Source: a phage
Strand: one strand, 5' to 3'
Length of the DNA stretch: 64,000 nt
Sequence record: OZ335959.1
This document shows, piece by piece, positions 48,300-50,459 of this stretch. The notes under the pieces were generated by a model, which made no database searches, was not told the DNA's origin, and saw nothing but the letters and a program-made list of their open reading frames with translations. Position numbers and translations under genes: made by a program. Each line of letters opens with the position of its first letter. Within the stretch, counting starts at the first letter, position 1.

Positions 48300-48880
48300 T
48301 TATACACTGATTCCGTAAGGGTTGTTACTTCATCTATTTTATACCAATGACTTTCAACCATTTCACGCTTGCTTATATCATCAAGAAAACTTGCATCTAA
48401 TTGAACCGTTGAATTAATACGATGCCTTTTAACGATGCGAGAAACAACTACTTCATCTGCATAAGGTAATGCAACATATAGCAGAGCAGGCCCGCCAATT
48501 ACACTGATGCGATTTTCGCTGGAATCGATAAACGTTTCAAAATTTGTATTAGGACTGGATAATTGGATACGTCCACCGGCTACCAAGGTAACATACTCAT
48601 CCCAGGTAATATAAAAATGAGCCAAATCACCATCTTTAGTTTCAGGATAGCCGCGTTTAATATCACATACCACCACATGACTACGACCTGGAAGTAATGT
48701 AGGCAATGACTGGAACGTTTTAGCACCCATAATCATAATTGTGCCTTCAGTACGAGCTTTAAAATTCTGAAGGTCCTTTTTAACTCGTCCCCATGGTAAA
48801 CCATCACCTAAACCGAATGCTAATTCATTAAAGCCTTCGACCGTTTTAGTTGGAGAATAAGCAAATACCAATTTAATCAT
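48296..48880 (-). CDS. frd: Dihydrofolate reductase, 194 aa
   Basis: Starts MIKLVF as in T4 Frd; the ORF-track start is an upstream extension. Confidence 0.9.
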
Positions 48881-49125
48881 TACGCAAAACCTCTTTCGAT
48901 AAACCATTCAGTGGCTTTATTAGCATCAAAGAATAATTCTTCATATGTCTTTTCTTTGTTTTCAAAGACTGTCACACAAACACGTTGACATTCTCCACAG
49001 TATTCTTCTGACATACTCAAAGCGTCAGAAAACATTTCATTAAATTCATTTAAATCAGGATTATGCAATGCGTTAAAAATTGCATAATCGAATTCATCAT
49101 TCATAAATTCAAATACAAAAATCAT
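48880..49125 (-). CDS. Hypothetical protein with CxxC pair (frd.1 position), 81 aa
   Basis: ATG start; [11 protein letters not shown]. Confidence 0.5.
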
Positions 49126-49133
49126 TTTATCTC

Positions 49134-49469
49134 CTAATATAAAGGATCGAGAACATATCCACTAGCTTTAATCATTTTAATTAATGTTAACATTCCTTTA
49201 TTAACTGCTAGTGAAATTTCATCAAAAACTTCATCACTAAAAAGTTCTAACACGCCCTTCTGAACTTTTAGTTTACAGCCAACAATTTCGTCATCGCCTA
49301 TAGTAAATTCGTTTCCGCCAATTCCACCGAAAAACTTAATTACGCCAGTTAACTGTCTTCCACGAGAATATGGGTCGTGCGATAAAGTAATATGAGTCAC
49401 CCCAGGTACAGTTTTAAATTGACAGCGAATGTTTACTTGAGAAATTCCAGTTACATGAATGTCAGACAT
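49134..49469 (-). CDS. Hypothetical protein (frd.2 position), 111 aa
   Basis: ATG start. Confidence 0.5.
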   Translation of the reverse strand: MSDIHVTGISQVNIRCQFKTVPGVTHITLSHDPYSRGRQLTGVIKFFGGIGGNEFTIGDDEIVGCKLKVQKGVLELFSDEVFDEISLAVNKGMLTLIKMIKASGYVLDPLY

Positions 49470-49479
49470 AATATTTTCC

Positions 49480-49722
49480 TCAAACAGACTTTTTCACAGT
49501 TTTCCAATCAGCTTTAAACTGATCAACATCAGAATGGTAAATCCAGAATCCTGCGCTTTCTCCATCTTCATAAAGAGGACATCCATCACATTCATCTTCC
49601 CATCCCATATCACGCAAAAGATGTTCAGCTTTTTCAACAAGTTCAGAATCTTTACCGATGATATTAAAATACCATTTACCTCTAACTTCTGAATCTTTAA
49701 TACTCTGACGTTGTAATCTCAT
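49480..49722 (-). CDS. Hypothetical protein with CxxC pair (frd.3 position), 80 aa
   Basis: ATG start; DECDGCP; early promoter upstream. Confidence 0.5.
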   Translation of the reverse strand: MRLQRQSIKDSEVRGKWYFNIIGKDSELVEKAEHLLRDMGWEDECDGCPLYEDGESAGFWIYHSDVDQFKADWKTVKKSV

Positions 49723-49740
49723 TTTATTCTCCTTAGTTGA

Positions 49741-49777
49741 TAGGGTAATAGTATCACACTACTACCCTACTGTAAAC
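49741..49777 (-). promoter_or_regulatory. Early promoter with inverted repeat TAGGGTA/TACCCTA around the -10
   Basis: GTTTAC at 49772-49777, TACTAT at 49748-49753. Confidence 0.5.
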
Positions 49778-50142
49778 TACTTTTTGAAAGTTTTTCGCAA
49801 AAGTTCAATGATTTCGTCGACGTTATTTTCGTCTACAATGCAGTGAATTTTTGTTACGCCAGAAACCTTGTCTTCGATTTCATCTTCTTCAGAAGTCGGT
49901 TCTTTATATTCACGGAAACAATGAAATTCATCTTCGCAAACGTTAAAGTAAAAATGCTTTCCATTTGCGCATTCAATGTATTTTATTACTCTAAATCCAT
50001 CGGCAAAGAAAGCTTCTTTAACTTCAAACCATCCGCCATTTTCTTGAATAATTTTAACTATTGATGAATTAGAACGTGGGCGATAATTAATAAATGTATT
50101 AATAAGTCTTGGAACAAGCTCATACTTTTTGCCGATATACAT
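49777..50142 (-). CDS. Hypothetical Cys/His-containing protein, 121 aa
   Basis: ATG start. Confidence 0.5.
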   Translation of the reverse strand: MYIGKKYELVPRLINTFINYRPRSNSSIVKIIQENGGWFEVKEAFFADGFRVIKYIECANGKHFYFNVCEDEFHCFREYKEPTSEEDEIEDKVSGVTKIHCIVDENNVDEIIELLRKTFKK

Positions 50143-50185
50143 TGTGTTTCCTCATTTTAATAGGGGCTATAAAGCCCCTTGATAA

Positions 50186-50416
50186 TTATTGTTCAATCAG
50201 TCCCATGTAAAATTCTGCGTCTTCAGAATCCATACCATCACAATATTCATTAGCCATAAAGCGGGTGAGGTCTTCAAGAGGACCTTCAATGACAATAGAA
50301 AAATTGCAATAATTGGGATCATCGTGAATACTTGTGATACTAAGCTCAGGATAACGATTACGAATAATTTCTTCAATATATTCAAAATCAACGATGTCAA
50401 TATCAACTTTAGCCAT
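50186..50416 (-). CDS. Hypothetical acidic protein, about 76 aa
   Basis: Internal ATG with AAGAGGAAA RBS preferred over the track start. Confidence 0.45.
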
Positions 50417-50459
50417 ATTATTTTCCTCTTTAATCATCAGCAGTATTGCCGATAGTTGT

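Follow-up and report, generated by a model that had tools for sequence, protein, structure and literature searches.

A mosaic run of five small genes in the frd-32 region of a T2-like Tequatrovirus: candidate early accessory functions and a domain shared with plasmids

What do the five small open reading frames (ORFs) lying between frd and gene 32 of a T-even phage do, and why do relatives carry different sets of them? We addressed this question in a 64,000-nucleotide stretch of the phage sequence record OZ335959.1 (the window), a T2-like Tequatrovirus segment whose minus-strand order is td, an ORF of 68 amino acids (aa), frd, the five small ORFs, gene 32, gene 59 and gene 33. The reading that we consider probable is that the frd-32 region is a hyperplastic block of non-essential early genes, punctuated by a promoter early stem-loop (PeSL), and that the products bind macromolecules of the host or the phage shortly after the DNA has entered. 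As a sequence feature the run is nothing new, since all five genes belong to existing families annotated in hundreds of T-even phage genomes and the overall biology is ordinary. What the analysis adds is a failed test for zinc ligands, a deletion remnant in T4, the allelic architecture of Frd.2 and Frd.3 and a link between Frd.1 and the leading regions of plasmids.

Five protein-coding genes under purifying selection

The first-pass annotation of this DNA had described five ORFs between frd and gene 32, and these were recovered at the positions it gave, with sizes of 81, 111, 80, 121 and 76 aa. The Cys/His strings that it had quoted, including CANGKH..CEDEFHC, are present in the window exactly as cited. 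The genes are as follows:

48880-49125, minus strand: ORF-A (81 aa; phrog_3183), acidic and aromatic-rich, with a TAATG overlap with the frd start
49134-49469, minus strand: ORF-B (111 aa; PF23905, DUF7247), which T4 and T2 lack
49480-49722, minus strand: frd.1 homologue (80 aa; PF17438, DUF5417), whose CDGCP loop is conserved
49777-50142, minus strand: frd.2 homologue (121 aa; PF03197, FRD2; ORF-D), with a variable N-terminal domain and a constant C-terminal module
50186-50416, minus strand: frd.3 homologue (76 aa; PF05798, Phage_FRD3), with its ATG at 50416 preceded by AAAGAGG

The open frame of frd.3 spans 50186-50437 (83 aa), and its second ATG, at 50416, gives the 76 aa that correspond to T4 Frd.3. 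At the DNA level the region is 94-96% identical to 347 phage records covering at least 80% of it, the best being Shigella phage ESh26, and the run is syntenic with the annotations of T4, T2 and ESh26. All five proteins matched phage protein families (E = 1e-31 to 1e-54). Frd.3 scored 129 bits against PF05798 (gathering threshold 28.1; profile positions 1-75 of 75), a family also matched by all 8 divergent Frd.3 family members. Scores for Frd.2, Frd.1 and ORF-B were 109.6 bits against PF03197 (gathering 29; positions 2-96 of 96), 113.6 bits against PF17438 (gathering 23.9) and 146.6 bits against PF23905 (gathering 27), respectively, and ORF-A was assigned by Pfam and PHROG searches to phrog_3183 only.

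The phylogenetic spread was counted by tblastn against 50,697 phage records. ORF-A was found in 470 records, almost all of them Tequatrovirus, and ORF-B in 487, including T4-like phages of Klebsiella, Enterobacter and Edwardsiella as well as Phapecoctavirus. Frd.1 was the most widespread (1,418 records, including RB43 and Webervirus siphophages), and Frd.2 and Frd.3 occurred in 767 and 733 records. An exhaustive HMMER search with ORF-A over 1.84 billion representatives returned four proteins, a single one of which (P0126, 42% identity) was divergent. Word-indexed protein searches with single sequences gave close relatives only and a first IMG/VR scan gave 6 loci only; diverse sequences were yielded by a concatenated profile of Frd.1 and DUF7247.

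The ratios of nonsynonymous to synonymous divergence (dN/dS), calculated pairwise against relatives by the Nei-Gojobori method, were 0-0.10 for ORF-A (from 2-5 synonymous changes), 0.14-0.56 for ORF-B, 0-0.17 for Frd.1, 0.08-0.30 for Frd.2 and 0-0.44 for Frd.3. Each of the five ATG codons is preceded at 6-9 nucleotides (nt) by a Shine-Dalgarno (SD) sequence, GAGG or AGGAG. Owing to the family matches, the homologues in 470-1,418 phage records and dN/dS values of 0-0.56, the ORFs are not chance frames, and all five are genuine protein-coding genes under purifying selection. T4 annotates frd.1 (DUF5417), frd.2 and frd.3 in the same order, as does T2, where the product encoded in a 255-bp gap without annotation is 100% identical to ORF-A.

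The first-pass annotation had also held that no function could be assigned from sequence, and this was confirmed in that none of the five gave a housekeeping-domain, PDB-sequence or defence-system-model match; they therefore stand as candidates, and only as candidates, for the accessory, takeover-type roles it had suggested. The PDB searches, made with single sequences and with profiles of the four alignable families, gave no credible match, the NCBIfam search of the five proteins gave none, and homology to a characterised anti-defence inhibitor was not detected in Pfam, NCBIfam, PADLOC or PDB searches. Paralogues of the five proteins were not found elsewhere in the window. Several low-scoring hits were discarded. 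A RelB-like/ribbon-helix-helix match at the N-terminus of Frd.3 had E = 0.0025 when the spurious long start was used but 0.058 from the true start, involved close relatives only and was taken as chance; P-II and RepB_C matches at the C-terminus of Frd.2 had E of about 0.1; a PADLOC Cas8b match to ORF-A reached 13 bits. The Rfam scan of the region returned no family, its best hit, beta_tmRNA, being rejected as sub-threshold (17 bits against 84).

We also observed that Frd.3 aligns only to positions 310-391 of the phrog_1764 profile (length 391) and that some records (H161, H179) label the frd.3 locus as single stranded DNA-binding protein, on which grounds phrog_1764 may mix gp32 and Frd.3 through mis-called fused ORFs.

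Early promoters, translational coupling and mosaic history

The regulatory signals of the run and the two genes that flank it are:

48296-48880, minus strand: frd (dihydrofolate reductase), the downstream context gene, translationally coupled to ORF-A
49741-49769, minus strand: PeSL stem-loop with 12-nt arms, overlapping the promoter spacer and -10 (-17.8 kcal/mol, z -4.5, 0/200 shuffles)
49748-49776, minus strand: predicted PeSL-type early promoter upstream of frd.1, TTTACA-N17-TACTAT with upstream TG
50162-50179, minus strand: hairpin separating frd.3 from frd.2, AGGGGCT/AGCCCCT, not followed by a T-run (-13.3 kcal/mol, z -2.3)
50460-50488, minus strand: predicted early sigma-70-type promoter upstream of frd.3, TTTACA-N17-TACTAT with TG
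50521-50539, minus strand: intrinsic terminator hairpin after gene 32, GGGGACC-ctaga-GGTCCCC plus T-run (-14.3 kcal/mol, z -2.2)
50562-51470, minus strand: gene 32, on the side of the run opposite to frd

One ORF had been credited with its own PeSL-type early promoter; we locate it in the 54-nt spacer ahead of frd.1, and a second early promoter with identical hexamers lies upstream of frd.3. The published consensus of T4/PST PeSLs is TTTACW-N17-TAYWAT (Comeau 2014, PMC4122927), which occurs in the window at 6 sites, 5 of them on the minus strand, against 0.38 expected, and the published layout places the stem-loop between -35 and -10 or overlapping -10 (Arbiol 2010, PMC2839356). In the eight Tequatroviruses compared the promoter hexamers are invariant, and in slur07 the PeSL stem is preserved by compensatory changes (GGGTA..TACCC to GGCTAT..ATAGCC). 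The PeSL-type promoter is thus supported by its consensus, by the stable stem-loop that overlaps it and by its conservation, compensatory changes included. The site shares with T4-type PeSL cassettes the promoter consensus, the stem-loop over spacer and -10 and the SD with ATG at the 3' end, and it likewise lies in a hyperplastic region adjoining variable ORFs, as judged here from sequence; unlike in those cassettes, most of the indel junctions observed here coincide with repeats of the SD/start sequence instead of with paired PeSLs.

The frd.3 promoter differs from the frd.1 PeSL in having the gene 32 terminator about 30 nt upstream in place of a stem-loop of its own. The terminator hairpin is kept in 8 Tequatroviruses, and the hairpin between frd.3 and frd.2 has in relatives a conserved stem and a variable loop. 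Within the frd.3 promoter (50460-50488; loci L002, L003, L004, L010, L011, L013 and L017) the -35 GTTTACA and TGGTACTAT are invariant, and of the 14-nt spacer phages that are otherwise nearly identical have three versions unrelated in sequence.

The two conserved sigma-70 promoters, one after the gene 32 terminator and one inside the PeSL before frd.1, would serve all five genes, in the transcription order Frd.3, Frd.2, Frd.1, the DUF7247 protein and the acidic ORFan, and would set their expression early in this phage. At the junctions frd.1/ORF-B and ORF-B/ORF-A the stop of the first gene overlaps the SD of the second; ORF-A shares TAATG with frd, frd shares ATGA with the 68-aa ORF (orf68), and orf68 shares TAATG with td. 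As the stop, SD and start signals overlap throughout, frd.1 through td is predicted to be one tightly translationally coupled unit. The SDs of frd.1 (AAGGAG; 49717-49735) and ORF-A (TAGGAG; 49126-49139) contain GGAG, the motif at which the T4 endoribonuclease RegB is known to cut, which would be consistent with inactivation of the early mRNA.

The comparison of presence and absence across T-even phages that the first-pass annotation had recommended separates T4 (neither ORF-A nor ORF-B), T2 (ORF-A only) and the window (both). T4 (NC_000866, T4p240-242) and T2 (AY310907) otherwise have frd.1-3 with the same order, strand, promoters, terminator and hairpin as the window. The 71-bp spacer between frd.1 and frd in T4 (145691-145761) consists of the first ~53 nt (~17 codons) of ORF-B and the last 20 nt of ORF-A, and its alignment to window positions 48874-49487 scored 63 against a shuffled maximum of 30. 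Since the spacer joins the start of ORF-B to the end of ORF-A, T4 is read as a ~520-bp deletion derivative. ORF-B is cleanly absent from T2 and slur07, and in PE37 and RB68 a divergent ORF-B is found together with a 30-codon ORF-A stub and an unrelated 113-aa gene. The frd-32 locus is hence a mosaic indel hotspot in which cassettes are gained and lost.

Allelic replacement was found within genes as well. The window Frd.1 is 97.5% identical to that of T4 and frd.1 is uniformly conserved; Frd.3 and the C-terminal part of Frd.2 are nearly identical in the two phages, apart from a different 17-codon patch in the window Frd.3 and a T2-type N-terminal domain in the window Frd.2, which is 57% identical to T4 in aa and has a loop 9 residues shorter. 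Against relatives, the frd.2 N-terminal domain is 43-63% identical in nt and the C-terminal module 92-95%. Sliding identity of 98-100% is broken by a 60-nt patch in frd.3 (70-72%), where codons 26-42 are the swapped patch. In these divergent segments of frd.2 and frd.3 the synonymous divergence dS is 0.74-1.56, against 0.05-0.26 in the flanks, and dN is raised as well. Positive selection was rejected as the cause of the divergence because dS rises together with dN; the segments instead are best described, by their substitution pattern, as old alleles exchanged by recombination.

Further insertions were seen at the locus. In PE37 (L010, 3001-3090) the first 30 ORF-A codons (70% identity) lie in an annotated gap before the unrelated 113-aa gene that occupies the ORF-A position. 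RB68 (L011, 2432-2692) and JS10 (L014, 3386-3646) have an extra ORF of 84-86 aa between frd.2 and the PeSL, the homologue of which in VR7 (L009, 1807-2061) lies instead between frd.2 and frd.3, and JS10-type phages carry two tandem frd.2 paralogues, frd.2a and frd.2b. T4 (NC_000866, ~146010-146090) and two IMG/VR contigs have a hydrophobic ORF of 22 codons (MFAPYIMAAVMLVCLYLLIKAC), unannotated and equipped with an SD, in the interval from the PeSL to frd.1, where near-repeats of the SD/start sequence flank it; this mini-ORF is absent from the window (~49723-49745), T2, PE37, RB68 and slur07.

Protein properties and the Frd.1 domain on conjugative plasmids

AlphaFold2 (AF2) models were made of two proteins, Frd.1 and DUF7247 (ORF-B). 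Frd.1 was predicted to adopt a ferredoxin/ACT-like fold, and DUF7247 a β4 sheet with three helices at a predicted local distance difference test (pLDDT) score of 85.5. The structure prediction that had been proposed as a check thus returned confident folds for both proteins, but no functionally informative fold match for either model, and a BFVD search gave DUF7247 relatives only.

Small acidic phage and plasmid inhibitors that mimic nucleic acid include T7 Ocr, ArdA and T4 Arn. ORF-A (isoelectric point (pI) 4.05, net charge -13 in 81 aa, 20% aromatic) and Frd.3 (pI 4.05, net charge -15 in 76 aa) resemble them in predicted early expression, small size and strong negative charge; the comparison is one of possible mode of action, and no sequence or family similarity of Ocr, ArdA or Arn to ORF-A or Frd.3 was detected. 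The window Frd.2 belongs to PF03197, the family which published AlphaFold models place among the LSm-like proteins of Tevenvirinae: residues 1-88 of Frd.2 were modelled as a five-stranded SH3/LSm-like barrel and grouped with GoF and MotB.1, and the AlphaFold3 multimer models were not confident (Kim et al. 2025, PMC12152347). The N-terminal domain of the window protein is a divergent allele, and a role on RNA may be suggested for Frd.2. In our hhalign comparisons the Frd.2 profile aligned weakly to T4 GoF (E = 0.0043, probability 8%; collinear over residues 3-90 against 7-92) and to MotB.1 (E = 0.04), and Frd.2 had no Pfam LSM/Hfq match.

The one new lead of the analysis is the link of Frd.1 to more than 1,000 enterobacterial plasmids. 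In a tblastn search of PLSDB, 1,087 plasmids matched Frd.1 over its full length at 32-39% identity; the type assigned to 1,049 of these was conjugative, and they come from Escherichia, Enterobacter, Salmonella, Klebsiella and Citrobacter; no plasmid homologues of ORF-A, ORF-B, Frd.2 or Frd.3 were matched. On the plasmids DUF5417 is the N-terminal domain of proteins of 225-459 aa (Pfam 54-56 bits against a gathering threshold of 23.9, at about 34-39% identity to the Frd.1 domain), which share with Frd.1 the blocks MKLxR, GW, D-x-CP-x-Y-x-D/E-G, GF/YWI and FKAxxK and differ from it in unrelated C-terminal extensions and, in the IncN and IncHI2 homologues, in the replacement of C45 by Cys at 50 and/or 57.

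In the two IncN plasmids examined, the DUF5417 gene ('orf792') lies between a MucR/Ros-type (ArdK-like) regulator and DUF905, ~2 kb from stbCBA/oriT/traK and oriented towards oriT, and in one of them (L028) an antirestriction gene is found further upstream in the same block. This block is the ArdK/CUP-controlled leading region for which PMC6289460 and PMC5371602 cite Delver and Belogurov. Anti-defence genes are overrepresented in leading regions, where ~10% of the gene families have a phage annotation (PMC11541004). The placement of DUF5417 there is contextual evidence and hints at an establishment or anti-defence role, and the plasmid genes, like frd.1, are expressed, or placed for expression, just after DNA entry. 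On IncHI2-size plasmids, which make up most of the matches, the gene stands in a run of small uncharacterised genes near a TraD block and a hok toxin, and one match, on a phage-plasmid-like Citrobacter replicon, adjoins a Lar-family gene.

Competing explanations and the proposed role

The Cys/His clusters of ORF-A, Frd.1 and Frd.2 had led the first-pass annotation to suggest three small zinc-binding proteins, of zinc-finger or zinc-ribbon type, with the clusters as structural metal sites. The motifs do exist in the window proteins, and they were followed through homologues aligned from 23 related loci and a profile search. In ORF-A, C43/C46/C50 are present only in copies at least 97% identical and are missing from both divergent homologues found, being Y/L/A in VR7 and without CxxC in P0126; in the natural variant P0007 (ENA contig, 64 aa) an in-frame 17-residue deletion removes exactly the Cys segment. 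T2-type Frd.2 offers five potential ligands inside 18 residues, but among 21 homologues C58 is retained in 10, H63 in 6, C69 in 8, H74 in 5 and C75 in 10, the substitutes M, Y, F and I are hydrophobic, as for core positions, and T4 Frd.2 is without three of the five (H63, C69 and H74). Frd.1 makes the best case, as C45-D46-x-C48-P49, part of a conserved loop W-x3-(C)-D-x-C-P-x-Y-x-[DE]-G, is invariant in 31 phage sequences and every DUF5417 member examined has at least two loop Cys, although each chain provides two ligands only, with no second knuckle, the first Cys is missing in the IncN and IncHI2 homologues so that C48-P49 is the sole universal part of the loop, and the motif lies, according to the AF2 model, on a loop of the ferredoxin-like fold that is extended. 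Four conserved Cys/His ligands (two knuckles) were not found across the homologues of ORF-A, Frd.2 or Frd.1, and none of these three gave a zinc-finger Pfam match. DUF7247 has one invariant Cys, in an R-C-Q motif, C16 and Q17 being invariant in 51 sequences. Judged by ligand conservation, none of the three proteins is a classical zinc finger, and structural metal sites in all three are unlikely: the suggestion was not supported for ORF-A and Frd.2, and of it Frd.1 keeps its Cys loop. As that loop always retains at least two Cys in the DUF5417 members examined, it is conceivable for Frd.1, and for no other of the proteins, that two subunits, or one subunit and a partner, share a Zn(Cys)4 site. 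Overall, the five genes, the early promoter and their candidate status were correctly foreseen and the zinc reading mostly was not, and the existing family names, the LSm-like prediction for Frd.2 and the fitness data had been missed.

Two other explanations were weighed. The small proteins might be accessory subunits or regulators of phage nucleotide metabolism, co-transcribed and coupled with frd, td and nrdA, a view favoured by the tight overlaps from frd.1 through td and by a position beside frd kept in many Straboviridae genera. Homologues of Frd.1 in RB43, the Webervirus siphophage phiW14 and plasmids, and of DUF7247 in Phapecoctavirus, have no frd, td or gp32 nearby; T4, lacking ORF-A and ORF-B, and T2, lacking ORF-B, both retain frd and td; and knock-down of T4 frd.1 is neutral. 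We rejected the nucleotide-metabolism link, which we rate as quite improbable, because the homologues in RB43, phiW14, ukendt and plasmids stand in surroundings that lack frd and td. It is more improbable still that the ORFs, or some of them, are filler of a recombination hotspot, in decay or without function. Remnants do occur at the locus (the ORF-B/ORF-A stub of T4 and the 30-codon ORF-A stub of PE37), ORF-A has almost no relatives beyond Tequatrovirus and the genes are dispensable in the laboratory; but dN/dS is well below 1 for all five, ORF-A included, SD sites are intact, intact copies stand in hundreds of phage records and both modelled proteins have confident folds. It is the purifying selection that contradicts the filler explanation.

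The proposal of a block of non-essential early genes fits the dispensability of its members. ORF-A and ORF-B are dispensable, as the natural deletions demonstrate, and T4 frd.1-3 are dispensable according to the literature: an amber mutant of T4 frd.2 plates normally (Kim et al. 2025, PMC12152347), and in the CRISPRi-ART screen frd.1 (-0.46) and frd.3 (-0.49) were both 'Not Fit' (PMC11879866). In the same screen frd.2 was the only 'Fit' T4 gene of unknown function, with a marginal supplementary score of 0.83 (p = 0.027) against 3.29 for gene 32 (PMC11879866). Of the T4 RNAs with an NAD cap, the frd.3 mRNA is one of the abundant species (bioRxiv 10.1101/2024.04.04.588121), and HIDEN-SEQ has identified other small uncharacterised T-even genes as defence inhibitors, for example nrdC.1 against Septu (bioRxiv 10.1101/2025.11.20.689424). 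The products are taken to be small, soluble and without a catalytic signature. Their action, probably stoichiometric, would fall in the opening minutes of infection and serve host takeover or counter-defence, to the benefit of the phage under certain conditions. Frd.2 would act through its LSm/SH3-like barrel, possibly on RNA as the literature suggests; Frd.1 would use the Cys loop of a ferredoxin-like fold as its functional site, in an 'establishment after DNA entry' role common with plasmid leading-region proteins; and Frd.3 and ORF-A may be highly acidic decoy-type binders.

Several points weigh against this proposal. No experiment ties any of the five products to a target, and the HIDEN-SEQ main text names none of the five and reports no phenotype for frd.x genes. 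The 'Fit' call for frd.2 conflicts with the viable amber mutant, and the relationship of Frd.2 to GoF was recovered weakly here (hhalign probability 8%). Acidity predicts function only weakly. IncHI2-size plasmids account for most of the plasmid matches, and the leading-region placement rests on two IncN plasmids.

A bolder and tentative idea, which we regard as doubtful at present, is that Frd.1 is a shared phage/plasmid 'establishment' module, with a ferredoxin-like fold and a Cys loop that perhaps forms a metal-bridged dimer or clasp, neutralising a host barrier right after DNA entry. By extension, the frd-32 run would be a T-even anti-defence islet, whose Frd.2 N-terminal and Frd.3 patch alleles would reflect target-specific arms races. 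Such a module would explain the presence of DUF5417 in early operons of T4-like and T1-like phages, on ~1,000 IncHI2-size plasmids and in the leading region that ArdK controls on IncN plasmids. With Frd.1, a phage early-gene domain recurs in the leading regions of clinically important resistance plasmids, and if Frd.1 does aid establishment, phage infection and the spread of resistance plasmids would have a common vulnerability. The five-gene accessory cassette, with its natural presence/absence variants, offers well-defined and testable dark-matter genes.

The neighbouring genes also vary. The window td (47233-48093) is uninterrupted, without the group I intron or I-TevI, unlike in T4, and the interval from gene 32 to gene 59 (51471-51569) contains no homing-endonuclease gene segG. 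The 68-aa ORF (phrog_9550; 48093-48299, minus strand), which lies between frd and td, is basic and absent from T4; PE37, RB68 and slur07 have a different 115-aa ORF at its position. It is 98.5% identical in loci of the Dhakavirus JS10/JS98 type, whose gp32 is only 65.6% identical to the window gp32, which suggests a recent cassette exchange across genera.

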